A DNA stretch of 64,000 nt from Armatimonadota bacterium. Lineage in GTDB: Bacteria > Armatimonadota > UBA5829 > DTJY01. The stretch covers positions 70,426-134,425 of the forward strand of contig JARYMF010000006.1 in assembly GCA_029907255.1 (NCBI GenBank), in the 5' to 3' direction. The notes beneath the pieces were generated by a model. The model did no database searches. It was not told the origin of the DNA and was given only the letters and a program-made list of their open reading frames with translations. Of this stretch, positions 3,814 to 57,941 are shown one piece after another; the stretch's first letter is position 1, and each line of letters opens with the position of its first letter. A program made the translations under genes and the position numbers.

Positions 3814-4838
3814 GAGCCTTCCTTTTTCTCCAACTTCTTGAAAATATGCTCACCATAAGGCATATGGCAGGTTGCGCAGGTGGCGTCTGCAGCTGCATTT
3901 GGAGCATGAGTTGCCATGTCTTTGATTTTTGCTGCATGGCAGCCAAGACATTGTTCGTTGACCGGCTTTCTCAGCTCATGTGCTATGCCCGACTGGTTAT
4001 GCGGATCATGACATGTCGTGCATGTCATTGTAAGCTTTGTATAATGAGTTGAGGTTATATGCTCCGAGTACTGTTGGTTTAGACCAGGAGTTGTTGGTTT
4101 GGCATCAACGAAAAACTTTGCAAGGTCATCGCCAGGTTTAAAGCCGATTGGGAAGGCAAACTTACCCGACAAATCCTTTCCTTTCGAGTGACATCCACCA
4201 CAAATCATTGTCTGTCTATCTCTAGGCAGTTCGGTTAGTTTCAGAATTGACCCCTTTGCAGTGGCATTTGAGACGTGATCGCCTCCTGGTCCATGGCACG
4301 ACTCGCACCCTACACCTGCCTCAACGTATGCCTTTGTCTCCGCGTTGTAACCCGTTACATGACAACCTATGCATTGGGTTGCACCATCAACTGCCTGCGT
4401 TGGCTTCCACTTTTTTGTTTTTACGTCCCAGATAGCTGGGAGCACCTGAAGATTAGCATCCAGGAACGCCTGCTGTTTAATACCTTTGCCGAGAACATAG
4501 GCTACTTTGTCCTTTGTGAACACAGGATTACTCGAGAAATCTGCGACAATCGCCCCCTCAGCATCCGCCTTCTGAAACGCTTTTGGGTGCCCCGTTTTTA
4601 AATACGCTTCCACGAGTTCTTTATGCGTATTTTGGTGACACATTTTGCATAATGTAGAACCTTTGTAAGCCGCCGTATGGGTGTCTCCATCCACCCTAAT
4701 GATATTTGACAGACTAATGCCAACCAAAACTAAAATGACTAGGGCGGGAATGCCATACTTCTTAATCATACCTCTGCTCCTTTTGAACAAACTCGTTGTT
4801 ATGCTTAACGCAAAAATGTTAAGCTCATCGAATAACAA
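3810..4838 (-). CDS. multihaem c-type cytochrome (7 CXXCH motifs) with N-terminal signal/anchor
   Basis: 342 aa with CKMCH, CIGCH, CESCH, CGGCH, CTTCH, CLGCH and CATCH. The N-terminal hydrophobic segment is IPALVILVLVGISL. It overlaps ccsA by 4 nt. Confidence 0.8.
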   Translation of the reverse strand: MLFDELNIFALSITTSLFKRSRGMIKKYGIPALVILVLVGISLSNIIRVDGDTHTAAYKGSTLCKMCHQNTHKELVEAYLKTGHPKAFQKADAEGAIVADFSSNPVFTKDKVAYVLGKGIKQQAFLDANLQVLPAIWDVKTKKWKPTQAVDGATQCIGCHVTGYNAETKAYVEAGVGCESCHGPGGDHVSNATAKGSILKLTELPRDRQTMICGGCHSKGKDLSGKFAFPIGFKPGDDLAKFFVDAKPTTPGLNQQYSEHITSTHYTKLTMTCTTCHDPHNQSGIAHELRKPVNEQCLGCHAAKIKDMATHAPNAAADATCATCHMPYGEHIFKKLEKKEGS

Positions 4839-4896: not shown

Positions 4897-6291
4897 CTAA
4901 GACTCTGATTTCAAGCAATCCCTAATTCGCTCGAAATCCTTATCGAAAATTGATGAGTCGGCTCTCGATGTTGCACCGACAACAACCAAAGCTCCATCCT
5001 CATTTGATAATACGCTTACTCGAATTATCCTATGATTAATATAAAATGCCGCAAGTATGCCAAACAAGACAAGTATGAATCCGGCATATAAGACTGGCAG
5101 TCCTGGGTTGCGGGAAATATCAAGCTTTGAGTATTCAATGGCTTCTAGTGCAACTTTATATCCACTAAAATCAACCGTCTGGCCGGACCTAATCCACCCA
5201 AGCGACTTCCAGTTTTCAACGCTCATTTCGCTAGGATAACGCTCATTTAGATATATCAGCGCCGCTGGATCAGGAGGCAGTGCAACCATATATTTTGGTA
5301 CCATTCCTCTGAAATTTGGCGCGAAATCGTGGATAAATACCCCTATCTCCTTACCCCCGAGACGGATTCCCTGGGGCTCTACATTCGACAGCCTGTAGTC
5401 CACTGACCCCTCTGATTCTACCACATCAATCCAAAAATTAGCCGACCCTGTCTCACCATTGGGGGAAGTAATAGCAACTCTTAGAATTGGCCCATAGCTC
5501 GCCTGAAAGAACGATATCCCTTTGTAAGTAAGCGGCCGGTTTACGTCTATCACTTTCCGCAAAGCTGAGCGACCTCTGTCGAAGACCTCCAAATCGCTGT
5601 TATATGCGCTCGGCCGGCCTTGATTGTCGCAAACTACATGAAAGTCGTGTAGCTTCAGTTCAAATCCTAGCGGCTTTTCTTGACCTGAGTCTTTTGCGAA
5701 GTAGGTTGAGACCATTTCACCTTCTGGAATCACTACAACTCCCTCGAAGCCAAACTTTGCACCTATAACGGCCCCAAGGAAAATTACAAGAATACTCAGG
5801 TGGGTTAAATACGGCCCCCAGATTGCAAGACGCCCCTTTGTGGCGTAAAGTGATATATTTCCTTCTTCTTCTACATGCAATACTTTGTACGCTCTAGAAC
5901 GTAGGGTTGTTACAATTCTCGACGCAGCTTCTTGGGAGGGCAGAGGGGTACAAAATTGCTCAGACCTCTTCATCGCTCCAACCTGCTTGGGCGTGGTCGA
6001 GATAGCAGGCGAAAAAGTTCTACGCCATGCGATACCAAAGCGGTTTATGCTGCAAACTAGGAGATTGACTAGCATTAAAACCAGGAGTGTTGCGTACCAC
6101 CACGAATGATAAATGTCCGGCGCCTCTCCGAAGGTTCCGAATACAGACGCCAGTGCAAGCAATAAGAGGAGAACTATAGCGGTTTTCATGGACGAGAAAA
6201 GCTTCCACAGCGAAGCAAATATCGCCAATTCACCTATCGGTTCCGTTTTTTCAATGTCATTTTCGTGATTATGAACTTCGCGGTCGGACAC
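4897..6291 (-). CDS. resB: cytochrome c biogenesis protein ResB/CcsB (Ccs1)
   Basis: 464 aa with an N-terminal TM pair, a large soluble middle domain and a C-terminal TM. This is the ResB architecture, and it sits upstream of the cytochrome and ccsA. Confidence 0.7.
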   Translation of the reverse strand: MSDREVHNHENDIEKTEPIGELAIFASLWKLFSSMKTAIVLLLLLALASVFGTFGEAPDIYHSWWYATLLVLMLVNLLVCSINRFGIAWRRTFSPAISTTPKQVGAMKRSEQFCTPLPSQEAASRIVTTLRSRAYKVLHVEEEGNISLYATKGRLAIWGPYLTHLSILVIFLGAVIGAKFGFEGVVVIPEGEMVSTYFAKDSGQEKPLGFELKLHDFHVVCDNQGRPSAYNSDLEVFDRGRSALRKVIDVNRPLTYKGISFFQASYGPILRVAITSPNGETGSANFWIDVVESEGSVDYRLSNVEPQGIRLGGKEIGVFIHDFAPNFRGMVPKYMVALPPDPAALIYLNERYPSEMSVENWKSLGWIRSGQTVDFSGYKVALEAIEYSKLDISRNPGLPVLYAGFILVLFGILAAFYINHRIIRVSVLSNEDGALVVVGATSRADSSIFDKDFERIRDCLKSES

Positions 6292-15507: not shown

Positions 15508-16182
15508 ATGGCATTTAGAACAAGGGTATTCATATGTATTCCTATCATAGTAGCCCTGGTTATATCCGCGTCATTCGCCTATGCAGCGGAGGTAAAAGAG
15601 CTTCAGCTGGCAGGAATCCGGCTAGGCAGATCGGCGCTGAGCATAATCCAGAAGTACGGCAATCCTACAGAAATAAGGGTTGGGTCTACAAGACAAGCAG
15701 CAACAGACACAGGGGCCGGCAGTCCATTCGGTACCGCCGAAGGCCCGCCTCCAGGCATGGGTGGGGCATCAAACCCCTTTGCGGCGCTTGAAGGTCCTCC
15801 TCCATCAGCAGGCGGTTCTTCGGCACCGGAGCAATCATCGCCTTTCCAAGGCTCAGCCGGAGGCAAAGCAAACAAGCAGTCAGCTCCCGAGGTTACATGG
15901 ATCTATCGGTTTCCCAAGAATCATACCCTCGAGTTCATCATCAACCCTGATGGCATAGTAATCCAGATTGCCGCTTTCGGCGTGGATTGGCCTGGCATAG
16001 GAACTTCGAAGGGTATTAAGCTCGGAAGCACTTATAAGGACGTTATCATGAAATACGGCTACCCAGAGTCCCACCAGAAGTCCGGAATGCAAATGGTCAC
16101 AAAATACATTGAAAAGAATAGGGTAGCATTTACATTCTTGGGCAAGACAGTTGTAGGCATCACAATTGCGCTTTGGGACTAG
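15508..16182 (+). CDS. secreted hypothetical protein with Gly/Pro-rich low-complexity linker
   Basis: 224 aa with the signal peptide MAFRTRVFICIPIIVALVISASFAYA. Confidence 0.5.
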   Translation: MAFRTRVFICIPIIVALVISASFAYAAEVKELQLAGIRLGRSALSIIQKYGNPTEIRVGSTRQAATDTGAGSPFGTAEGPPPGMGGASNPFAALEGPPPSAGGSSAPEQSSPFQGSAGGKANKQSAPEVTWIYRFPKNHTLEFIINPDGIVIQIAAFGVDWPGIGTSKGIKLGSTYKDVIMKYGYPESHQKSGMQMVTKYIEKNRVAFTFLGKTVVGITIALWD

Positions 16183-18038
16183 TGCCGTTAACCGAGCGGG
16201 GGTTGCTCTGTGTGGCTAGCGCGCGCGACGCCATTGATGAGATTCGGACAAGGCTCAGTATTCTTGACGTCGTATCGGACTATGTTACTCTGAAGCGCGT
16301 CGGGAAAAATCACGTCGGGCTCTGCCCATTCCATGCCGAAAAAACACCTTCTTTTACGGTCAGCGAGCAATTTCAAACATGGCATTGTTTTGGCTGTGGC
16401 GAGCACGGCGATATTTTCTCATTTGTGATGAAGGCGGAGAGCCTCACTTTCCCAGAAGCCCTTGAACGATTGGCAAAACGCGCGGGAGTAGAGCTTGAGC
16501 GCCTTCAAAAACGACATTCAAGCCGCAGAGATGCCCTTAGGGAAATAAACGAAATAGCGGCCTCCTATTATCGGGAGTTGCTAAAACGAACACCAATCGC
16601 TATTGAATATCTTCGAAGGCGCGGGCTTGCCGATCAAACTATCGAGCAGTTTAAGCTCGGATACGCCGCAGCTGCTTGGGATGGCTTGGTCTCTTACCTG
16701 ACCAAAAAAGGCGTGAACTTAGCTTATGCGGCAGAGGCAGGCCTTCTTATCAAAAGCGATCGTGACGGCGGATATTATGACCGTTTTAGGCATAGGATTA
16801 TTTTTCCGATCTTTGACATACACGAACAGACAATCGGCTTCGGCGGTCGGGCCATCGCCTCCGACGACCAACCAAAATATCTAAATTCGCCGGAGACGCC
16901 GCTTTTTAACAAAACAAGAGCGCTTTATGGTCTCAATTTTGCACGTAAAAAGATCGCAGAGCTTGACCAAGCGATTGTTGTTGAAGGCTATACAGACGTC
17001 ATTGCCTGCCACCAAGCAGGTTTCGAGAACTGTGTAGCCACGTTAGGAACGGCGCTCACTAGGGAACATATTAATGTACTACTACGCTATACAAAGCGGG
17101 TAGTGTTAGCTTACGACGCCGATTCTGCGGGAATTTCGGCGGCAATTAGAGGCGCTTCCATGTTTGAAGAAGCTGGGTGCGATGTACGAATAGCCCGACT
17201 TCCGGGCGGCGACGACCCAGATAGTGTGCTTAGGAAAGGGCTTGTAACCGAGTTTGCCGCCGCAATTTCAGATGCGCTGCCAATTATAGATTACAGGCTT
17301 GCGATACTAATGGAGAGCCATGATCTGTCATCTTATACAGGTAGAGCAGAAATGCTCAAACAGGCTGTAAGGATCTTGGCTGAGATTCCCACTAGTATCG
17401 AACGTGAAAAGCATATTAGAAAGCTCGCAAGGTATCATCCGAACTTTGAGACGGGTACAACTAGAGCAGAGGAACACCTAAGGCAGGATATTGAACTAAT
17501 AGCGCGAAGGCGGCAGAGCATAAAAGGAATAAAAACGCCTATCAATCAATGGTCGAAACCTAAAACAGCCGTTGAGAAGGCTGAAATTTCAATCTTAAGA
17601 ACACTAATTCGCAACGAGGAGGGAGCGCAACTTATTGTAGAAGCGCTATCAGAAAATGATTTCTCAAACGACCTAACCCGCACAGCGGCAAAAGCGGCGT
17701 TCGAAGCCGTTAGGGAAAATGGAGTGGTCGAGCTAAACAAGATAATAGGATCAGTTACAGCTGAAGTCGGCAGATTTCTAAGCGAGCTTGCATTGCGGGA
17801 GGACATGCCGCCACTTAATGAAAAAGGTTTGCAGGATTGTATCGAATTGATAAAGAAATCAAAACTTAGGAAAATGAGAACTTCGGACATTCTTGCACCG
17901 TATATGAAAGATGGTATAATAGATGCTTCAAAGGATTTGCACGAAGCAGCAATCAGACAAGCTATCGAATTATTTAGAGAAACCGGAAAAGTAGATCCAA
18001 AAGCTGGTCCTAAAGGGATGAACGAAAGTGACAGTTGA
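16173..18038 (+). CDS. dnaG: DNA primase
   Basis: CHC2 zinc finger [13 protein letters not shown]...CFGCGEHGD, Toprim EGYTDV and DnaB-binding C-terminus. The start codon is uncertain: TTG 16173, GTG 16182 or GTG 16212. Confidence 0.9.
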
Positions 18039-19161
18039 AGATATTAAAGAAAACGCAGAAATACAAAAACTACTAAACGAAGGCAAACGTAAGGGCATAC
18101 TTACGTATGACGAGATCAGCGATACTCTGAGCCGCCAAGAAGATATTGATGCGGACCAGATAGACGATCTCCTGCAAACATTTGCCGATGAAGGAATTCA
18201 AGTAGTCGAGGAGATCAAAGATGCTGAACTCGTCGAGGAAGCCCCTGTGCCTGAGGAAGCACCCGTCCATGACATCGAGGTTCATGAAGAAGAACTCGCT
18301 GCCATGGAAGGACTTCCGCTTGACGACTCGGTTAGGATGTGGCTCCGCGAGATTGGTCGAACTCCGCTCCTAACAATGGAGGAAGAGGTTGCCCTCGCCA
18401 AAACAATAGCTGAAGGCGACGGCAAGACTCCGGAAGCTCAAAAAGCAAAGGAAAAGCTAATTCAAGCAAACCTGCGTCTTGTCGTAAGCATTGCAAAAAG
18501 ATACAGCGGTCGCGGGATGTCATTTCCTGACCTAATTCAAGAAGGGAACATCGGGCTTATTCGTGCAGTCGAGAAATTCGATTATAGGAAAGGCTATAAG
18601 TTCAGCACATATGCCACATGGTGGATTCGCCAGGCGATCACTCGTGCTATAGCGGACCAGGGTCGGACAATTCGAATCCCGGTGCATATGGTCGAGACGA
18701 TCAACCGCCTGATAAAGACATCAAGCCACCTTCTTCAAGAACTTGGCCGCGAGCCAACTTTGGAAGAGCTGGCTCGCGAAATGGACTTGCCGGTTGAGCG
18801 CGTTAGCGAAATTATGCGGATTGCACCTGAGCCTCTTTCGCTCGAAACACCAATTGGAGAGGAAGAGGATAGTCACCTTTCCGACTTTATTCAAGACCGT
18901 GATACCGTTTCGCCAGACGACGCCGCATCACATCAGCTCCTGCGCGAGCGGATTGTTGAGGTGCTATCAGAGCTAACTAGTCGAGAACGGGATGTACTGA
19001 GGATGCGTTTCGGACTGGACGACGGCTACCCCAGGACACTCGAGGAAGTTGGGCGGCACTTTCAGGTTACACGAGAGCGCATCCGCCAGATCGAAGCCAA
19101 GGCTCTTAAAAAGCTCCGCCACGCCAAGCGACGGAAAAAACTCGAAGAGTACCTGGCATAG
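18028..19161 (+). CDS. rpoD: RNA polymerase sigma factor, sigma-70 (SigA/RpoD)
   Basis: 377 aa with region 2.4 [14 protein letters not shown], region 3 and region 4.2 [27 protein letters not shown]. The dnaG-rpoD arrangement is the classic one. Confidence 0.9.
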
Positions 19162-22203: not shown

Positions 22204-22310
22204 TCTTAGAGCAAGTGTGACTGCCTACCCCCTGCGTTTCAATGCTACCGTTGTCGGGTATAAGCTTTATGCCCGACGCAATAAGAGTGATTGTTGGAAG
22301 GAATCCTACG

Positions 22311-22775
22311 ATGCCTGCCATATCACGCAATAGAAGCGTCCTCTTCCGAATCCCCAGCGATGTAAGGTACGTTCCGATGGCTCGCAAGGGAATAGCGGCA
22401 ATTGCAGAAAGCATGGGCTTCCCGAACGAAGCAGTAAAGGATATCGAATTGTCGGTTTCAGAAGCGGTTACCAATGCCGTAAGTCATGGAAGTCCCAGAC
22501 AGGCAGACAACGCCGTTGTGATTATATGTGAGGTAACAGACGATGCCCTCACTATTGACATTCGCGACGAGGGCCATGGCTTCCAACCGGATTCCTGCTT
22601 GAAAAACGCAGAAAGTTTGCAGGAAAGCGGCAGGGGGTTGACGCTTATTTACAGTCTAATGGATTATGTTCAAGTTGCCAAGACTCGCAAAGGGTCGAGC
22701 GTACGAATGGTAAAGAAAAAAACATCCTCGCTTCAGAACCTGGCTACAGCAAACACCAAATGCAAACAGACATGA
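22311..22775 (+). CDS. RsbW/SpoIIAB-like anti-sigma factor serine kinase (HATPase_c)
   Basis: About 155 aa from the internal ATG, which has a GGAAGGA RBS. N-box SVSEAVTNAVSHG and G-box DEGHGF are present. No sigma factor or STAS partner is adjacent. Confidence 0.6.
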   Translation: MPAISRNRSVLFRIPSDVRYVPMARKGIAAIAESMGFPNEAVKDIELSVSEAVTNAVSHGSPRQADNAVVIICEVTDDALTIDIRDEGHGFQPDSCLKNAESLQESGRGLTLIYSLMDYVQVAKTRKGSSVRMVKKKTSSLQNLATANTKCKQT

Positions 22776-22816
22776 CGACGGCATCTCCCTACTGCAGGGA
22801 ATGATGCCGTCGTCTA
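22773..22816. terminator. 12-bp-stem hairpin between the rsbW-like gene (+) and KGG copy 1 (-)
   Basis: GACGACGGCATC...GATGCCGTCGTC with an inner sub-stem. There is no strong U-tract on either side. Confidence 0.35.
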
Positions 22817-22833
22817 TCTGGGTATGAAGGACG

Positions 22834-23118
22834 TTACTGACCGCTAGCTTTTCCTCTTTCAATCAGCTCTTTGACTTTCTGACCACCTCGATGGCCAATT
22901 TCTTCATAGAACTCATGTCCATATTTCTCGCTGGTGGTCTGTCCGCCCTTGGCGCCGATTTCCTCATAAAACGGCGAGCCGTACCGTTGACTGGTAGTCT
23001 TGCCGCCCTTTTTGCCGATCTCTTCATAGAACTTATGGCCGTACTTCTCGCTGGTGGTCTCACCACCGCGTCTTCCGGCTTCACTCACTGTCATCTGCCC
23101 CTTCTTTTCACGCGCCAT
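22834..23118 (-). CDS. KGG-repeat general stress protein (YciG/GsiB-like), copy 1, three repeats
   Basis: Three repeats of the form T(S/A)xKYGHEFYEEIGKKGG(Q/K)TTS. The RBS AGGAGGTG lies 7 nt before MAREKKGQ. The track ORF begins 3 codons earlier. Confidence 0.7.
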   Translation of the reverse strand: MAREKKGQMTVSEAGRRGGETTSEKYGHKFYEEIGKKGGKTTSQRYGSPFYEEIGAKGGQTTSEKYGHEFYEEIGHRGGQKVKELIERGKASGQ

Positions 23119-23418
23119 GAGAAGCACCTCCTTTCATTCGCTTACTATAATCTCGGACCAGCTTATCTGCTGGCACGACACCTTTTGAACTATATGGGGC
23201 TTATTATGTAAGAGCCCGGCCGAACTGCAAGTGCGGCAATCCACTTTATGCCACGTCAATTTGACGTGCCGGCCATGGCTCGCTTACCTTCTGTGATTTC
23301 ACAGTTTTGCCAATTTCATGCACTCCTACTTTCCTTATACCCATTTAATTAACAAATTACTAACAAGAAGCCAATTTACTAAAAGCCAATCGTGTTAAGA
23401 AGCCAATAAAGAGATGCT

Positions 23419-23658
23419 CTATTCGCCAAGAGCCTTTTTACCTTCCTCAATGAGCTTCTTAACTTTTTGGCCACCCTTACGCCCTATTTCTTCATAAAAT
23501 TCGTGGCCATAACGCTCAGCTGTGGTCTCGCCTCCTCTGCGGCCACCTTTCTTGCCGATCTCCTCATAAAACTCATGGCCGTGAGTTTGAGCAGTGCGTC
23601 TACCACCTCGGCGACCAGCCTCGCTAACCGTTATATCACCAACGTCTCTTTTTGCCAT
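23419..23658 (-). CDS. KGG-repeat general stress protein, copy 2
   Basis: 79 aa with two HGHEFYEEIG(K/R)KGG repeats and the RBS GAGGAGGTG. Confidence 0.7.
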   Translation of the reverse strand: MAKRDVGDITVSEAGRRGGRRTAQTHGHEFYEEIGKKGGRRGGETTAERYGHEFYEEIGRKGGQKVKKLIEEGKKALGE

Positions 23659-23784
23659 TTCGTTTCACCTCCTCAATTGGGAGTAAACGAATTAATTCGA
23701 CTGCAAGACTTCAAGGCTATATTAAGCTAGCGAAACTTATTCCAGCCATCCCCGGGCCGGAGCGGGGATGGCTGCTTAGCTAAG

Positions 23785-24015
23785 CTAGCTCTCTCCAATA
23801 GCCTTTTTGCCTTCTTCAATGAGCCTCTTCACCTTCTGGCCGCCTTTATGGCCGATCTCCTCATAGAAGGGCGTCCCATATTTTACGCTGGTTGTTTCTC
23901 CGCCCTTCCTGCCAATCTCCTCGTAGAACTTGTGGCCATGAGTCTCGGCTGTGCGTTTGCCGCCTCGGCGTCCGGCCTCGCTCACACTCATTCCGCCCTT
24001 GCCTTCCTCGGCCAT
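23785..24015 (-). CDS. KGG-repeat general stress protein, copy 3
   Basis: 76 aa with the same repeat and the RBS GGAGGAGGTG. A hairpin at 23741..23773 lies downstream. Confidence 0.7.
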   Translation of the reverse strand: MAEEGKGGMSVSEAGRRGGKRTAETHGHKFYEEIGRKGGETTSVKYGTPFYEEIGHKGGQKVKRLIEEGKKAIGES

Positions 24016-24109
24016 TTTTTCACCTCCTCCCGGAAATTCGAGAGGATATCCGTCCCGCCAGAATAGAGCCCTGGCGTGTTGCTTCTTTGCAAACTAATGA
24101 GAACCTCTA

Positions 24110-24280
24110 TTACTTCGAGGCGGCGGCCTTCTTACCTTCCTCAATCAGCCTCTTGACTTTCTGACCGCCTTTGTGGCCGATCTCCTCATAGAACTCATGG
24201 CCGTATCTGCTGCTCGTGGTCTGGCCACCTTTGCGTCCGGCCTCGCTTACCGTCATAGCGCCTTTCTTCTCCTTGGCCAT
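24110..24280 (-). CDS. KGG-repeat general stress protein, copy 4 (56 aa, below the ORF-track length cut-off)
   Basis: Hand-translated as MAKEKKGAMTVSEAGRKGGQTTSSRYGHEFYEEIGHKGGQKVKRLIEEGKKAAASK*, with the RBS GTAGGAGGTG. Confidence 0.6.
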   Translation of the reverse strand: MAKEKKGAMTVSEAGRKGGQTTSSRYGHEFYEEIGHKGGQKVKRLIEEGKKAAASK

Positions 24281-24744
24281 CTATCTCACCTCCTACTGTG
24301 CTCGCCGGGCAAATAGCCCGCTGCGAGTTTTTTCGATTTTTCGTTTGCCCTTGGTTTATTCTGCGGGCAAACGACATTAAAAATTGTTTTAAGATGTCAA
24401 AGCCCAAAGCTAATTGCCATAATCTTTATTACCTTTTTGACAAAATCTTTAATCTCCCAACGCCCTCCTAGTCGATATTTTTGTAAAATTTATGACATCT
24501 TGTTATCTGCCTTTCCGACTTCATTGAGTTTATTTGCCAAACATGCAAATAAACTGCGCGCATTTTATGGACTTATGTCGTCAGTCGATTTGCATCGACT
24601 TTAACCTTATTCCCTCCAGCCTTTTTATTTCGACTTCTCAATCTGGTTATAACCATTTGATAACCATGCCAAACATTGCGTACAAATAAAGGCTACGCAT
24701 AATGCTGAATCCATCGTTCCATCAAGAATCGCCTTCGCAGAATC

Positions 24745-25665
24745 TCATGGCTGACATTTCATATTGAAGCTCATCGGTACACGCGCAGGTTGGCTTTTAT
24801 CAAGCTTCCAAAGCACGTATTGAATAATTTCTGAGGCTATGTTGCATGAGGTAGTATCTGACAATCCAAACCACGACGGAGCACCATTAAGCTCCAATAT
24901 TAGAGGACCATTTGGACCTTCTATTATGTCCACACCGGTATAATCAAGGCCTACAATTCGCGCAGCTGCCAAGCACATTTCCCGCATATCGTCCGTTAAA
25001 TAACAGGGTTCGCATTTACCTCCCTGATACACATTTGTCTTCCACTGCCCTTCACTAGCGTATCGATACATTGCAGCGACAACCTTTTCACCAACCACAA
25101 AGGCACGTATATCTCTTCCATTGTTTGGTATGAACTCTTGAACGTAAACTGCACGATATTGCTGCAAAAAGGTCGGAAGTATTTCCATGCTGGTCTCAGG
25201 CACGACCTTTTCAACACCAATGCCATGTGAACCGTAAAGGGGCTTTATTACTGCGGTGCCAAATTTCTCTATCGCAGCCATCGCCTCATCAATTTTCTGA
25301 GTGATAATCGTGCGGGGCACAGGCAACCCTGCCTGTTTTAGGAAAAATGTCGTTTGAGCTTTGCTCTCAGCAACGGACAAACTCTCGAGGGAGTTTATGA
25401 TTAGCCTGCCACTGCGCGCAATAAGCTCAAATACGTCATATTGGTAATCTACTTCGCCTTGCTGACTAAAATACCGAAGAATAAAAGCGTCAAAGCTTTC
25501 GGCAGGCTCGCCATCGAAACGTATTGAGCCGCTGTTGTCGACCTCTATCAGCGAAGATAGGGGGTCTATTGGCAAGCCCTCGGCAACATTCATTGCCGCA
25601 TTGAGAAGCTCCCTACTTGCCCAATCACGCTCGAGATCTGGGGTTACGATGCCTATTCTCCGCAT
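24745..25665 (-). CDS. RimK-family ATP-grasp ligase
   Basis: 306 aa. The ATP-grasp fold is indicated by VIKPLYGSHGIGV and EFIPNNGRDIRAFVVG, and by a C-terminal GLDYTGVDIIEGPNGPLILELNGAP. Confidence 0.7.
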   Translation of the reverse strand: MRRIGIVTPDLERDWASRELLNAAMNVAEGLPIDPLSSLIEVDNSGSIRFDGEPAESFDAFILRYFSQQGEVDYQYDVFELIARSGRLIINSLESLSVAESKAQTTFFLKQAGLPVPRTIITQKIDEAMAAIEKFGTAVIKPLYGSHGIGVEKVVPETSMEILPTFLQQYRAVYVQEFIPNNGRDIRAFVVGEKVVAAMYRYASEGQWKTNVYQGGKCEPCYLTDDMREMCLAAARIVGLDYTGVDIIEGPNGPLILELNGAPSWFGLSDTTSCNIASEIIQYVLWKLDKSQPARVPMSFNMKCQP

Positions 25666-25851
25666 GAAGCGCCTTTTCTTAATTTACTTGTAAATTAAGC
25701 TCAAACTTTCAATAGCCCAGCGACGACGGTCTTTGGGGCTTTTTGGTGGGATATGTTAGTTCATTCTAGCTATACCCCAAGGCTAGTGAGGGTAAACTAT
25801 GCGGAGAATTCCCTATCAAATCGGTACATTCAAAAATCAACCAGTTGCATG

Positions 25852-26439
25852 TCAATAGAGATGGAAGACTTCTTGAATGCCCTGGCGGATGAACTGAACT
25901 GCAATCGCAGCAAGGAGCATTCCCATTATCTTGGCGATAACATCTGAGCCTGTCTTGCCGAGAATTCGGTAAAGAAAGCTTACATATCTGAATATTAGGA
26001 AAGTAACAGCAAATGAGGATATAACAGCTGCGACTGTTATCCAAAGGCCATAGAGTCCTATCAATACAATTGTTGTGGTTATCGCGCCAGGACCTACTAA
26101 TAATGGCACTGCTAATGGGACTACGCCGGTCTGGCCTGCCGAGGAAACGCCATAATGCGCCTCGCTGATTGTTTTCATTGCGACAACGAGAAGTAATATG
26201 CCGCCTGCTATCTTGAAATCACTTAGGGTGATTCCAAACAACCTTAGAATACCAGTCCCAGTAAAAGCAAAAAGAAGCAAAAGGAGGAGTGCGACCTTTG
26301 TAGCTCGTGCAAGGATAGCACGCCGTTCATCTGGAGTAGCATCTTGCGTAAGCGCAAGAAACAGCGGTATTAGCCCCAGTGGGTCTATTATAATGAACAA
26401 CGCTATCGTTGCCTTTGCAAAAGGTATCAGAAAGCTCAT
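25852..26439 (-). CDS. MarC/UPF0056 family integral membrane protein
   Basis: 195 aa with six TM segments. The N-terminal FIIIDPLGLIPLFLALT motif is the MarC signature. Confidence 0.7.
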   Translation of the reverse strand: MSFLIPFAKATIALFIIIDPLGLIPLFLALTQDATPDERRAILARATKVALLLLLLFAFTGTGILRLFGITLSDFKIAGGILLLVVAMKTISEAHYGVSSAGQTGVVPLAVPLLVGPGAITTTIVLIGLYGLWITVAAVISSFAVTFLIFRYVSFLYRILGKTGSDVIAKIMGMLLAAIAVQFIRQGIQEVFHLY

Positions 26440-35843: not shown

Positions 35844-35920
35844 TGGAGCCGACGATCCGATTCGAACGGACGACCCGCGCATTACGAATGCGCTGCTCTA
35901 CCAGCTGAGCTACGTCGGCC
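35844..35920 (-). tRNA. tRNA-Thr (anticodon CGU)
   Basis: Reverse complement GCCGACGTAGCTCAGCTGGTAGAGCAGCGCATTCGTAATGCGCGGGTCGTCCGTTCGAATCGGATCGTCGGCTCCA folds as a cloverleaf with anticodon loop TTCGTAA. Confidence 0.85.
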
Positions 35921-35947
35921 CGCACTACCGCTCTGATGATACCAGGT

Positions 35948-36023
35948 TGGTGCCGGGACCCAGAATCGAACTGGGGACACGTGGATTTTCAGTCCACTGC
36001 TCTACCAACTGAGCTATCCCGGC
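35948..36023 (-). tRNA. tRNA-Phe (anticodon GAA)
   Basis: GCCGGGATAGCTCAGTTGGTAGAGCAGTGGACTGAAAATCCAC...TTCGATTCTGGGTCCCGGCACCA, with anticodon loop CTGAAAA. Confidence 0.9.
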
Positions 36024-36072
36024 ACTACTCCGCGGTAAAGGCTATCGGCAAAGTCAGCTTTCAAATTAAAAA

Positions 36073-36151
36073 TGGCGGGGATGACGGGACTTGAACCCGC
36101 GGCCTCCTGCGTGACAGGCAGGCGCTCTAAACCGTACTGAGCTACACCCCC
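36073..36151 (-). tRNA. tRNA-Asp (anticodon GUC)
   Basis: GGGGGTGTAGCTCAGTACGGTTTAGAGCGCCTGCCTGTCACGCAGGAGG...GGGTTCAAGTCCCGTCATCCCCGCCA, with anticodon loop CTGTCAC. Confidence 0.85.
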
Positions 36152-36218
36152 GTGTGTAGCCAAAAGTCAAAAGTGAGGAAACCCTTCTTGTGCTCCTTCA
36201 GCTTTTGCTTGGCTTCGT

Positions 36219-36293
36219 TGGTGGGCGAAACAGGGCTCGAACCTGTGACCTCTTCCTTGTAAGGGAAGCGCTCTCCCAACTGAGCTATTCGCC
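36219..36293 (-). tRNA. tRNA-Val (anticodon UAC)
   Basis: GGGCGAATAGCTCAGTTGGGAGAGCGCTTCCCTTACAAGGAAGAGGTCACAGGTTCGAGCCCTGTTTCGCCCACCA, with anticodon loop CTTACAA. Confidence 0.85.
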
Positions 36294-36826
36294 CGCGTCC
36301 GGTAATCAATCCCGGACCCTCTTCACTGCGTAGTATATCAACACTACGCCCAGCTGTCAATAAAAACAGGTACTGCCACCTGCTTGATTTTCTCAATCAA
36401 AGCGATTTACGCAATCAAAGTATAGCATCCTGCGAGAAATATGTCAAGATAAAACACACTCTTTTACATCATCCGAGTACATGTAAATTGCGCTCCAAAT
36501 TTATTTTCCACAGACTGTAAATACAACTGCGACTGTCAGAAACTATGCGCAGTCGTTGGTAAAAAGTATGCAGAAAGTCTGCCATGAGCAAGAATTAAAC
36601 GCTGGTGAAAAAGACTTTCTATCACACCATTTGCTTGTTTTCTGCTATGCGGTTCGGCTTAAATGCGAATTAGCATCAGCTGCTTGACAATGCGACCGAG
36701 AAAAGCTACACTTCGATTACACTTCGAGCCGGCAGGCGATAACGTAACGGCACTAGTTTCCAATTTTATGTATCTTAACGAAAAATTATAGGTGTAAGTA
36801 ACGCTGGCTTTTCCCATCAGTCGCCA

Positions 36827-41830: not shown

Positions 41831-42490
41831 TTAGGACTCCTTTGCCTTTTCCGATGATTCCTCGGTTGGAGCCGCTGGAGCTTCCTCGGCAACTTCGGGA
41901 GCGGGCGCCACCTCTTCAACCCTCACGGCCGGCATTCTCACTGTGGCAACAACGATATCCGAAGGTGGCCCTAGCACTTCAATGTCTTCCGGCACTACTA
42001 GGTCGCCCACGTGCACCGATTCGCCCAGCTCAAGCTTTGAGACGTCTACATCAATGTGCGGTGGTATATGGTCAGGTAACGCCTTAACTTCGAGCTCACG
42101 TACGAATTGCTCAAGAATCCCACCTTGCTTCTGTCCGGGCGCCTCCCCAACCAGCACGAGCGGTACTGATGCATGCACTGGCTCGTTTAGGGAAACTCTG
42201 TGAAAGTCAACATGGATTATTTTCTTCGTAATTGGATTCCTCTGAATTTCTTGAATTAGCACAGGGTGAGCTTTTGATGTTTTGCCATCAACTTTTAGGT
42301 CTATTAATGCAAGCCGCCCACCTGGCGATTTGAGAATTTGCTCAAATTCCTCGCTCTCTATCTCTATCGCCTTCGGTTCAAAATCCTTGCCATATACTGT
42401 AGCAGGTATCTTGCCCTCACGCCGGAGCTTTTTCGTGTAGCTTTTCAATAGGCTCTGCCTACTCCGTGCAGAGAGTTGTAGCCTGGTCAT
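41831..42490 (-). CDS. rplY: 50S ribosomal protein L25 / general stress protein Ctc
   Basis: 219 aa. N-terminus MTRLQLSARSRQSLLKSYTKKLRREGKIPATVYG, a beta-barrel domain and an acidic/Ala-Pro-rich C-terminal extension typical of the Ctc form. Confidence 0.85.
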   Translation of the reverse strand: MTRLQLSARSRQSLLKSYTKKLRREGKIPATVYGKDFEPKAIEIESEEFEQILKSPGGRLALIDLKVDGKTSKAHPVLIQEIQRNPITKKIIHVDFHRVSLNEPVHASVPLVLVGEAPGQKQGGILEQFVRELEVKALPDHIPPHIDVDVSKLELGESVHVGDLVVPEDIEVLGPPSDIVVATVRMPAVRVEEVAPAPEVAEEAPAAPTEESSEKAKES

Positions 42491-42686
42491 GATATCATTC
42501 TCCTTAACAAAGGTTGAAAAATCAATACATAAGCGTAAAACACCGAGCTGTAGTATATACTATGCATTCCCTAAAGTCAAGTAGTCCCCCAATAGTTCAC
42601 AGTTTTTGAACCCATATTCAACGAACTTCAAACAAAAGCGACATGAAACTCCCATTGTTCGCTTTGAAGTTTAAATGGAAGCATAA

Positions 42687-42713
42687 GAGGGTAGCTTTTT
42701 GGCTACCCTCTTA
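42687..42713. terminator. stem-loop downstream of galT (-) / upstream of rplY (-)
   Basis: AAGAGGGTAGC-ttttg-GCTACCCTCTT, a perfect 11 bp stem. The U-tract is weak. A second imperfect hairpin lies at 42622..42672. Confidence 0.4.
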
Positions 42714-42746: not shown

Positions 42747-43838
42747 TCAGTGGACACAAACTTCGGCTTTATCCTTCTCAGTATCGGATTTGCCGCCCGT
42801 GTTGTCTGGCTGCTTTGCTGCATCTCTAAGGTGCTTCGCAGCATCCTCAGGTGCCGTTACGTTTATGTATATGCCCGTCCCCATCTCAAAGCCTGCTGCG
42901 ATGGTGAGCCTGGGGGCTATCTCAAGATGCCAATGGAAAGTGTGATCTTTTTCGGCATCAAATGGTGCCGTGTGCAGAGTATAGTTGTATGGCGGATAGT
43001 TCAGGCACTTTCCTATCATTTGCAGTGCTCTCTGGACTACATCTGCGAATGCAGGAATTATCTCTTGGCTCTCGGCAAATGACTTATAGTGCCTCTTCGG
43101 CATGATCCAGGTTTCAAACGGGAATTTTGGCGCAAACGGCTCAAATGCAATGAAGTCCTCTGTCTCCACAATCACTCTTTGACCAAAGTTAAGTTCCTGG
43201 CGAATCATGTCGCAAAAAATGCATCGGTCATGATAATCATAGTATCTTTCGGCGCCAACAATTTCTTGTTTCACTTCCATCGGAACCATGGGCAGGGCAA
43301 TCAGCTGGGAATGAGGATGTTCGAGGGATGCGCCGGCTACCTTCCCATGATTGCGGAATATTAGGATATACTTGAATCTAGGATCTTTCCTCAAGTCAAG
43401 TATTCTCTGGTGGCAAGCCCACCATACTTCCTGCGCTTGGCGAGATGATATGGTAGCCATGCACTTGTCGTGCTCCGGAGTCTCAATGATTACCTCATGT
43501 GCCCCTACCGCATTCATGAAATCATACATCCCAACGCCACCCCGGTCGAGGTCTCCCTCAATAGCCAGTGCAGGGAATTTGTTAGATACCACCCTTACCC
43601 ACCAACCTGGGCTGTTAGGTGGACTTCCCGGAGGACGGAAAGCCAGCACCTCAGGCGGAGTCATTTCCTCATTCCCTGGACAAAACGGGCAAGTGGCGCT
43701 GAATGCCGGTCTTTGTGAGGTATTCTCGGCTTGGGAAAAATCGGATGGTCTCTTGCTACGCTCGGTGGCTATGATCACCCATTCCCTCGTTACCGGGTTT
43801 TTTCTCAACTGCGGCATCCTTGTCTCCTTTGCTGTCAA
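42747..43838 (-). CDS. galT: galactose-1-phosphate uridylyltransferase family (HIT superfamily)
   Basis: N-terminal RKNPVTREWVIIATERSKRP, zinc site CPFCPGNE and active-site HPHSQL. Length is 363 aa. Confidence 0.8.
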   Translation of the reverse strand: MTAKETRMPQLRKNPVTREWVIIATERSKRPSDFSQAENTSQRPAFSATCPFCPGNEEMTPPEVLAFRPPGSPPNSPGWWVRVVSNKFPALAIEGDLDRGGVGMYDFMNAVGAHEVIIETPEHDKCMATISSRQAQEVWWACHQRILDLRKDPRFKYILIFRNHGKVAGASLEHPHSQLIALPMVPMEVKQEIVGAERYYDYHDRCIFCDMIRQELNFGQRVIVETEDFIAFEPFAPKFPFETWIMPKRHYKSFAESQEIIPAFADVVQRALQMIGKCLNYPPYNYTLHTAPFDAEKDHTFHWHLEIAPRLTIAAGFEMGTGIYINVTAPEDAAKHLRDAAKQPDNTGGKSDTEKDKAEVCVH

Positions 43839-49617: not shown

Positions 49618-49701
<84 letters not shown>

Positions 49702-57854: not shown

Positions 57855-57941
57855 TGCCGAAGTGGCGGAATGGCAGACGCGCATGGTTCAGGACCATGTG
57901 CCCGCAAGGGCGTGCGAGTTCAACTCTCGCCTTCGGCACCA
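57855..57941 (+). tRNA. tRNA-Leu (anticodon CAG)
   Basis: GCCGAAGTGGCGGAATGGCAGACGCGCATGGTTCAGGACCATGTGCCCGCAAGGGCGTGCGAGTTCAACTCTCGCCTTCGGCACCA, with anticodon loop TTCAGGA. Confidence 0.85.

Follow-up and report, generated by a model that had tools for sequence, protein, structure and literature searches.

A tandem array of four small KGG-repeat genes occupies positions 22834-24280 of a 64,000-nucleotide (nt) stretch of an Armatimonadota genome (contig JARYMF010000006.1; hereafter the window, to whose numbering coordinates refer unless the locus of a relative is named), which raises the question of how these genes are controlled, how the array arose, and with which neighbours its products might act. 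Comparison with related loci suggests an answer: the region is probably a general-stress island, in which KGG hydrophilins are under sigma-B-type control and a RimK-like ligase gene is their genomic partner. Besides the array, this reading involves a RimK-family alpha-L-glutamate ligase-like ATP-grasp gene immediately upstream of it (24745..25665, minus strand; profile searches) and a gene for a 154-amino acid (aa) RsbW/SpoIIAB-type anti-sigma serine kinase on its other side (22311..22775, plus strand; HATPase_c_2 domain).

Four KGG hydrophilin genes and their family

As had been described from the letters of the window alone (the sequence-only reading), the array comprises four tandem minus-strand KGG genes, and all of their open reading frames (ORFs) were found to be intact. 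They are g94 (22834..23118; 94 aa, a KGG/LEA_5 hydrophilin, three repeats of 20 aa, and the tail QKVKELIERGKASGQ; Pfam and public gene calls), g79 (23419..23658; 79 aa, two repeats, and a diagnostic KKGGRRGGETT insert; Pfam), g76 (23785..24015; 76 aa, two repeats, and a diagnostic YGTPFYEEIG; Pfam), and g55 (24110..24280; 56 aa, one repeat; Pfam and the exact protein in public calls). The last of these is a genuine gene, whose translation contains neither a frameshift nor a stop. That it had been considered missed by the ORF track is an artefact of a 60-aa cut-off, and public callers annotate all four genes; the exact 56-aa protein and its three neighbours are called on three public contigs, one of which is GCA_023511795.1 (an Armatimonadetes metagenome-assembled genome). 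The sizes of 79, 76, and 56 aa given earlier could be kept, whereas the first gene encodes 94 rather than 97 aa and starts at ATG 23118, because the GTG start of the longer ORF is formed by the last three bases of the g94 Shine-Dalgarno (SD) sequence AGGAGGTG, and public gene calls also give 94 aa. Each gene carries one to three repeat copies, as previously stated (3, 2, 2, and 1 in g94, g79, g76, and g55, respectively), and a repeat finder detected eight in-register copies of a 40-nt repeat core at 60-nt spacing within the genes. The tail QKVK(K/R)LIEEGKKA, proposed for all four proteins, fits three of them, whereas the 94-aa protein ends with its own version. The strong ribosome-binding sites were also real: AGGAGGTG is located 5-7 nt ahead of every one of the four ATGs, at 24287..24294 for g55, 24021-24028 for g76, 23666-23673 for g79, and 23125-23132 for g94 (minus strand; exact 8-mer count), and these identical sites are its only four occurrences on both strands of the 64-kb window (128 kb).

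Assignment to the YciG/GsiB-type KGG family was confirmed by the profile search that had been suggested for it, as all four proteins exceeded the Pfam KGG gathering threshold (PF10685; 42.0 bits for g94, 40.4 for g79, 39.5 for g76, and 33.4 for g55, with a threshold of 20.4). The late embryogenesis abundant (LEA) profile LEA_5 (PF00477; threshold 40) was exceeded by g94 (46.1 bits); g79, g76, and g55 reached 26.7-30.5 bits, with significant E-values yet under the threshold. All eight in-register tandem copies contain the group 1 LEA/GsiB motif GG-x-T-...-G-...-Y-x-E-[IM]-G-x-KGG, and the LEA_5 profile alignment supports a match of the repeats to the Em/GsiB consensus. An architecture common to the family consists of the cap MTVSEAGRxGG, n repeats of 20 aa (xTTxxxYGxxFYEEIGxKGG), and the tail GGQKVKxLIEEGKK(A). 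The four proteins are small (6-10 kDa), glycine-rich, and basic (isoelectric point (pI) 9.3-9.9, net charge +3 to +6), contain neither Cys nor Trp, and have the composition of hydrophilins, with 16-21% Gly (defined as >6%) and a grand average of hydropathy (GRAVY) of -1.11 to -1.35 (defined as about -1 or lower). AlphaFold2, given 50 homologs, produced a single uninterrupted long helix with a predicted template modelling score (pTM) of 0.39, and therefore no globular fold is predicted; disorder in solution is compatible with this helix model. NCBIfam holds no model for the four small proteins, and no solved structure of them was found.

The family is very widespread, with at least 569 confirmed matches in a collection with one genome per species; the locus comparisons reported here are based on 80 loci retained from these matches, mainly from Armatimonadota, Eremiobacterota, Actinomycetota, and Chloroflexota. 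The four genes are fresh members of the already known GsiB/group 1 LEA family, and annotation pipelines name them already, relatives being called 'KGG domain-containing protein', 'general stress protein YciG', or 'Small hydrophilic protein'.

Predicted sigma-B-type promoters of the array, ligase, and kinase genes

Control by an alternative sigma factor had earlier been only hinted at. This hint gained substance from conserved sigma-B-type motifs at the array, the RimK-like gene, and the kinase gene, the array site being non-canonical. With a position weight matrix (PWM) built from 35 sites of other phyla only (null expectation, 0.47 matches of >=16 per window), the best score in the window (18.6) was obtained for GTTTAC-N14-GGGTAT at 25772..25797 (minus strand), 106 nt before the ATG of the RimK-like gene, and the joint second score (16.5) for GTTTCA-N14-GGGTAT at 22236..22261 (plus strand), 49 nt before the ATG of the kinase gene. 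For the array, a near-invariant block, ATGTTTGGCA-N8-AAATGGTTATAAC-N5-TGAGGAGGTGA, i.e., GTTTGG-N14-GGTTAT abutting the SD, precedes the first array gene (g83) of five Armatimonadota relatives (loci L004-L007 and L009). The gene g83 is gone from the window, where the relic array-head promoter GTTTGG-N14-GGTTAT is found at 24649-24674 (block 24631..24676, minus strand) as the only exact match in 64 kb. In relatives, all three sites recur in place, their hexamers being kept while the spacers have diverged: the promoter of the RimK-like gene is kept in all six relatives, and that of the kinase gene in L003, L004, L006, and L007, being absent wherever the kinase gene is absent.

Similar motifs accompany the family elsewhere. 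GTTTNN-N12-16-GG[GT]TA was observed within 200 nt upstream of 55 of the 186 KGG genes in the 80 loci, compared with 1.9 expected, and KGG genes of Eremiobacterota and Actinomycetota are likewise preceded by this promoter type. The consensus across KGG loci, GTTTAA-N13/14-GGGTA(T/C/A), agrees with the sigma-B consensus and its optimal N14 spacer, and gsiB, ctc, and rsbV-rsbW-sigB are sigma-B-dependent (PMC9847131, PMC8346170). Other promoter classes were rejected: no sigma-70 promoter was found on the minus strand within the array, TTGACA at 24395-24400 having no acceptable -10 element at 16-18 nt, and a sigma-54 reading of the conserved TTGGCA block was dismissed by inspection, as its GG-to-GC spacing is incorrect and varies among relatives. 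A weak sigma-B-like site with a low PWM score, GTTAGT-N16-GGGTAT, lies in the g79-g94 spacer (23337..23364, minus strand), 9 nt before the decayed SD of a mini-gene described below, and L006 carries GTTAGC-N14-GGGTAA in the equivalent spacer. It is possible, judging from the motif, that this weak site is the promoter for the pseudo-mini-gene and g94.

Several additional motif matches were recorded. The tail codons for VKxLIEEGK (GTT AAG ... GAG GGT AA) can mimic a GTTAAG-N14-GGGTAA promoter just before the next gene, with a score of 7.3 in the window (23438-23463, minus strand) and 13.7-13.8 in L009 (5728-5753) and L052 (5587-5612). A weaker sigma-B-like site, GTTTGA-N14-GGGTTC (42608-42633, minus strand; PWM 12.7-12.9), is located approximately 118 nt upstream of the gene for ribosomal protein L25/Ctc (41831..42490, minus strand), ctc being a classic member of the sigma-B-dependent genes in B. 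subtilis. A strong GTTTAA-N14-GGGTAG (42669-42694, plus strand; PWM 16.5) has no plausible plus-strand gene downstream and faces antisense into a GalT-like gene (42747..43838); it might drive an antisense RNA or have arisen by chance.

The array had been placed directly downstream of an orphan RsbW-like kinase gene. The kinase gene is indeed without partner genes nearby, but the two are convergent, tail to tail and 58 bp apart. The kinase matches HATPase_c_2 with 100.6 bits over profile positions 1-127 of 127, and its best matches in the PDB are RsbW (6m36) and SpoIIAB; it remains under the RsbW equivalog thresholds (89 vs. 145 bits for NF003144 and 73.5 vs. 155 for TIGR01924). It is fast-evolving, with 45-52% identity in relatives, and the gene is absent from two of the five loci L004-L007 and L009. 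In Actinomycetota and Anaerolineae loci, weak homologs of the kinase are paired with STAS proteins near KGG genes, and sigma-B-type promoters are found there too. RpoD is the sole sigma-70-family gene detected in the window; a dnaG-rpoD pair (18028-19161 and 16173-18038, plus strand) precedes the kinase gene by approximately 3 kb in the same orientation.

A RimK-like ligase as partner of large KGG arrays

The product of the gene upstream of the array scored 193.5 bits with the rimK_fam model (TIGR00768; subfamily threshold 143.4) and 121 bits with Pfam RimK. It fell below the equivalog thresholds for S6 RimK (123.7 vs. 331), MptN (271.2 vs. 350), and LysX (164.6 vs. 275.6), and below the graspetide/microviridin maturase models (TIGR04184, 30.2 vs. 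475; TIGR04185, 28.2 vs. 425; TIGR04187, 51.8 vs. 350). Its closest solved structures are RimK-type ligases (7qyr, 4iwx) and LysX. Among the 80 loci, the 13 with at least four KGG genes all have a homolog of this ligase directly upstream on the KGG strand, whereas no locus with up to three KGG genes has one there. The converse comparison gave the same picture: seven ligase homologs with 39-45% identity, selected for long contigs and varied sources without knowledge of their neighbourhoods, all have KGG/LEA_5 arrays immediately downstream. The adjacency spans Armatimonadota, Chloroflexota, and Actinomycetota, with gaps of 5-60 nt. Across these loci, gene order shows this RimK subfamily as a dedicated genomic partner of large KGG arrays, and the ligase gene, which the sequence-only reading did not mention, is the best conserved of their neighbours. 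A Methanocella locus contains two tandem KGG genes and no ligase, and therefore the ligase link is not universal. A literature search found no paper linking RimK to KGG/LEA proteins, so that the constant pairing of a RimK-like ligase with KGG arrays across several phyla seems to be undescribed so far.

What the ligase does may be considered in two ways. One view is that this RimK subfamily is a dedicated modifying enzyme of KGG/LEA-type hydrophilins, which adds glutamates to them or ligates their side chains, the array being its substrate set. The strict cross-phylum adjacency with operon-like gaps and the occurrence of the ligase gene only beside large arrays would fit this view, as would the T, K, and EE residues conserved in each repeat. 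The solved relatives RimK and LysX point in the same direction: RimK-family enzymes act on small proteins, i.e., S6 for RimK and LysW for LysX, and graspetide ligases act on repeat-bearing precursors. In one lineage, the RimK-like ORF naturally continues in frame into a KGG half-repeat and tail, ending ...FYEETGHKGGRKVKKLIEEGKRALDEGR (L052 4672-5637; P0112). This fusion, however, is represented by two related sequences and by only 1 of 120 homologs, and its AlphaFold2 model, which has a confident ATP-grasp fold and a tail helix with a predicted local distance difference test score (pLDDT) of 69-82, came as output without contact information and thus says nothing about docking. The idea that RimK generally acts on KGG proteins through a C-terminal Glu was rejected: the C-termini of these proteins are predominantly basic, with Glu seldom at the end, so the classic RimK/LysX chemistry cannot be general. 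Moreover, the enzyme is much nearer to alpha-L-glutamate ligases (193 bits, and 271 for MptN) than to maturases (30-52 vs. 350-475), and the same repeat exists in plants, Bacillus, Methanocella, and Eremiobacterota without such a ligase. Modification of the KGG proteins by the ligase is regarded as rather doubtful.

The other view, which is possible without being probable, is that the ligase leaves KGG proteins alone and makes an acidic small molecule or oligo/poly-alpha-glutamate, or glutamylates S6, sharing only a regulon and a role with the array. E. coli RimK can make poly-alpha-glutamate, and mammalian RIMKLA/B make acidic dipeptides. The ligase gene has a conserved sigma-B-type promoter distinct from the array promoter, its product passes the RimK-family alpha-L-glutamate ligase threshold, and the KGG proteins are basic (pI 9.3-9.9). 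In Pseudomonas, RimK modifies S6 and remodels the proteome (PMC4741518, PMC7343187). On the other hand, co-regulation alone rarely holds genes adjacent across three phyla at 39-45% identity, and the thresholds of the S6 ligase (124 vs. 331) and MptN (271 vs. 350) are not reached.

Some further genes were observed near KGG arrays of the Actinomycetota type. These arrays have a second ATP-grasp gene of approximately 393-412 aa (CPSase_L_D2/ATP-grasp_3 type) on the opposite strand (L011 7670-8908, L014 3713-4897, L016 3901-4947, L085 6834-8015, and L089 6461-7648), and the arrays L014, L087, and L089 are followed by some or all of a phosphoribosyltransferase (PRTase), M54 peptidase, STAS, HATPase_c_2, TatA, and TatC.

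An old array that is losing units

The units had been thought to be products of serial duplication, and a recent origin of this kind is contradicted by the divergence of the paralogs and by positional orthologs in relatives. In the nucleotide alignment that had been proposed for dating the duplications, the paralogs in the window showed 66-75% nt, 36-58% third-position, and 73-85% aa identity over a shared 99-nt module. Third positions near saturation together with high aa identity indicate that the duplications are old and have been under purifying selection, and no sign of recent gene conversion among the paralogs was seen in the identity comparison. The five Armatimonadota relatives have five units in the same order and with the same diagnostic indels, and their flanking proteins are 52-77% identical to those of the window. 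By these comparisons, the duplications are older than the divergence of species that share 55-77% identity in their flanking proteins.

A sixth unit was found in L004, where an intact 43-aa zero-repeat KGG mini-gene consists of a cap and a tail (L004 5669-6000 / 4325-4785). Alignment to the tail-coding region of L004 revealed its decayed counterpart in the window at 23273..23327 (minus strand; AGGAGTG-ATG ... ATC ACA GAA GGT AAG CGA GCC ATG). The first unit, g83, has left a promoter block with a degraded SD (GAGAAGTCG) at 24631-24676 (minus strand). This relic block is the sole part of the 464-bp spacer with significant similarity to relatives (43-47 nt, 79-84% identity in five relatives, E-values of 1e-6 to 1e-9); a possible 'GGNKVK' tail trace of the g83 coding region in the spacer was not significant in comparison with relatives. 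The ancestral array reconstructed from these loci comprises six units, namely g83, g55, g76, g79, the zero-repeat mini-gene, and g94, and the array in the window is shrinking from these six units, not expanding.

Two small elements were noted in passing. In L004, a DUF2795-like small ORF (assigned by eye) lies between the first and second KGG genes (5669-6000 / 4325-4785). In the g79-g94 spacer of the window, a near-perfect palindrome, CACGTCAAATTGACGTG, is found just downstream of the pseudo-mini-gene (23252-23268, minus strand), with two substitutions in L003; it could bind a protein or fold into a hairpin.

Spacers, hairpins, and leader

The spacers, formerly put at 100-290 bp, measure 94 bp (g55-g76), 126 bp (g76-g79), and 300 bp (g79-g94). 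A hairpin of its own had been ascribed to each spacer. Clear hairpins are present after g55, g76, and g94, and before g55, whereas only a weak 5-bp stem follows g79. The hairpin of the g55-g76 spacer (24056..24076, minus strand) has no U-tract, and relatives have the stem GCTGGCGGG..CCCGCCAGC at the same place. The strong hairpin of the g76-g79 spacer (23743..23775, minus strand; approximately -22 kcal/mol by folding) likewise has no U-tract; its stem GCCATCCCCG..CGGGGATGGC is kept in L004, L005, and L007, and other stems occupy the same place in L006 and L009. At the g79 stop codon, a sequence scan revealed a weak terminator-like 5-bp stem with a U-rich tail (23416..23433, minus strand). Between the convergent g94 and kinase stops there is an 18-bp hairpin (22774..22814; -30.7 kcal/mol, z = -6.4), which is a probable bidirectional terminator of both genes. 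Conservation of hairpins was assessed by reading the sequences of the relatives, as a fixed-length hairpin scan of the spacers was too crude.

Together with these hairpins, the scan of the 5' spacers for promoters bears on the proposal that the four genes are independently regulated units, each with its own 5' promoter and terminator hairpin, derived from recent serial duplication. Neither a sigma-70 nor a sigma-B-type match was found in the 94-bp and 126-bp spacers of the window, the same two spacers of the five relatives likewise had no promoter match, and the conserved promoter block is confined to the ancestral array head. It is true that every gene has a strong SD, that most spacers have a hairpin, that g94 is set off by 300 bp with the weak GTTAGT-N16-GGGTAT, and that Actinomycetota-type arrays have a promoter at nearly every KGG gene. 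Nevertheless, the hairpins lack U-tracts, and the duplications, with third positions near saturation, predate a species split, so that independent units are quite unlikely in this array. From the promoter motifs, the individually regulated model appears to hold in Actinomycetota-type arrays and not in the lineage of the window.

Upstream of g55, a conserved leader (24281..24499, minus strand; z = -4.5) contains hairpins at 24342-24373 and 24301-24327. These 219 nt (24281-24499) differ by 1.4% between the window and L003, a close relative, compared with 5-6% for the RimK-like and kinase genes and 16% for 24500-24639. Inside this hypervariable stretch, the promoter block is partly repeated at 24515-24546. 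A gathering-threshold search of the window against Rfam returned tRNAs only and no known leader or riboswitch; an E-value search of 22700-25900 gave one viral pseudoknot match (24 of 50 bits), which was discarded as spurious. The window has six tRNA genes, four at 35847-36294 (minus strand) and the others at 49621-49701 (minus strand) and 57856-57938 (plus strand).

Proposed mechanism and points against it

In the general-stress reading, a sigma-B/sigma-F-type factor would fire GTTTGG-N14-GGTTAT at the array head, as the motifs suggest, and g55, g76, and g79 would form a single transcript, with the second, weaker site perhaps serving g94. The intergenic hairpins without U-tracts might act as partial terminators/attenuators or as elements of mRNA processing or stability. 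The sequence AGGAGGTG before each cistron may provide high translation and mRNA protection, as for B. subtilis gsiB, whose mRNA is stabilised by a strong ribosome-binding site (PMC7509114). The ligase and kinase genes would belong to the same regulon, because each has its own canonical GTTT-N14-GGGTAT promoter, and negative feedback on the sigma factor would come from the kinase. By analogy with the family, the KGG proteins would accumulate to high levels in starvation, osmotic stress, or drying, and could protect other macromolecules by shielding them in a hydrated, disordered form that turns helical on drying. In Acinetobacter baumannii, desiccation tolerance needs a KGG-domain disordered protein (bioRxiv 10.1101/2021.08.11.455981).

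Several points weigh against this reading. The promoters discussed here are motif predictions, and that of the array has GGTTAT instead of GGGTAT and scores 11.2 with the PWM from other phyla. It is also the sole good array promoter, and 370 nt, including a strain-hypervariable stretch, separate it from g55 downstream; in the window it may be a dead relic, and the conserved 219 nt beside g55 may hide an unrecognised promoter. The intergenic hairpins could be full terminators, in which case g76 and g79 would need promoters of their own. A single promoter per array is not a general rule, as individual sigma-B-type promoters (GTTTAA-N13/14-GGGTA) precede almost all KGG genes of Actinomycetota relatives. 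In addition, no sigma-B-like sigma, STAS, or RsbV gene was detected within the 64-kb window, and the protective role would be carried over from the family to this subfamily.

Comparison with known systems

The closest parallel is B. subtilis GsiB, which resembles the array products as a small Gly-rich hydrophilic protein with tandem 20-aa KGG-type units (...FY[EQ]EIGxKGG) and resembles the locus, as far as motifs tell, in having a sigma-B-type promoter, an exceptionally strong SD, and an RsbW-type kinase in the regulon. Unlike GsiB, which is one gene with five repeats, the array has several short tandem genes with 1-3 repeats each, and its proteins are basic, have the conserved tail GGQKVKxLIEEGKKA, and have a RimK-like ligase gene as a constant neighbour. 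Unlike the sigma-B locus of B. subtilis, the kinase gene in the window stands alone, without an adjacent rsbV or sigB, in an Armatimonadota host known from sequence.

The array proteins also resemble the group 1 LEA proteins of plants, Artemia, and archaea (Em/Dur-19; LEA_5) in the 20-residue motif and the hydrophilin composition. They differ in that three of the four are under the LEA_5 threshold, in being much shorter, and in their bacterial tandem array, predicted sigma-factor control, and ligase partner. The group 1 LEA family was reported to occur in each of the three domains of life (PMC8946055), a spread also attributed to Campos et al. 2013 as cited in PMC12904285. With YciG, SEN1538, PA2146, and A. 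baumannii ABUW_2433, the array proteins share the Pfam KGG repeat and, by prediction, a stress-sigma regulon, which is that of RpoS in those species; enterobacterial and other KGG proteins have roles in stress, biofilm, and desiccation tolerance (PMC7161692, PMC9262955, bioRxiv 10.1101/2021.08.11.455981). YciG-type proteins differ in their shorter GG-rich unit without the FYEEIG core, and in being encoded by single genes with a different sigma factor and no described ligase neighbour. The upstream gene belongs with the RimK/LysX/MptN family by the rimK_fam threshold and by its solved RimK-type and LysX relatives; its genomic partner, however, is a KGG array, and not S6, rimA/rimB, or LysW.

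Implications

In uncultured Armatimonadota, a GsiB-type target with a very strong ribosome-binding site is again found in company with an RsbW-type kinase and a predicted promoter of the classic Bacillus sigma-B type. Given the recurrence of this promoter type outside Firmicutes, such general-stress wiring may be much more widespread, and in that case, stress regulons would be predictable directly from metagenome-assembled genomes. If the ligase does modify KGG proteins, bacterial LEA-like proteins in these phyla would be enzymatically modified polymers, and the tandem array would be a substrate set switched on jointly by a sigma-B-type factor. How LEA-like proteins protect cells is still debated, and a dedicated ligase partner gives a concrete biochemical handle on this question.

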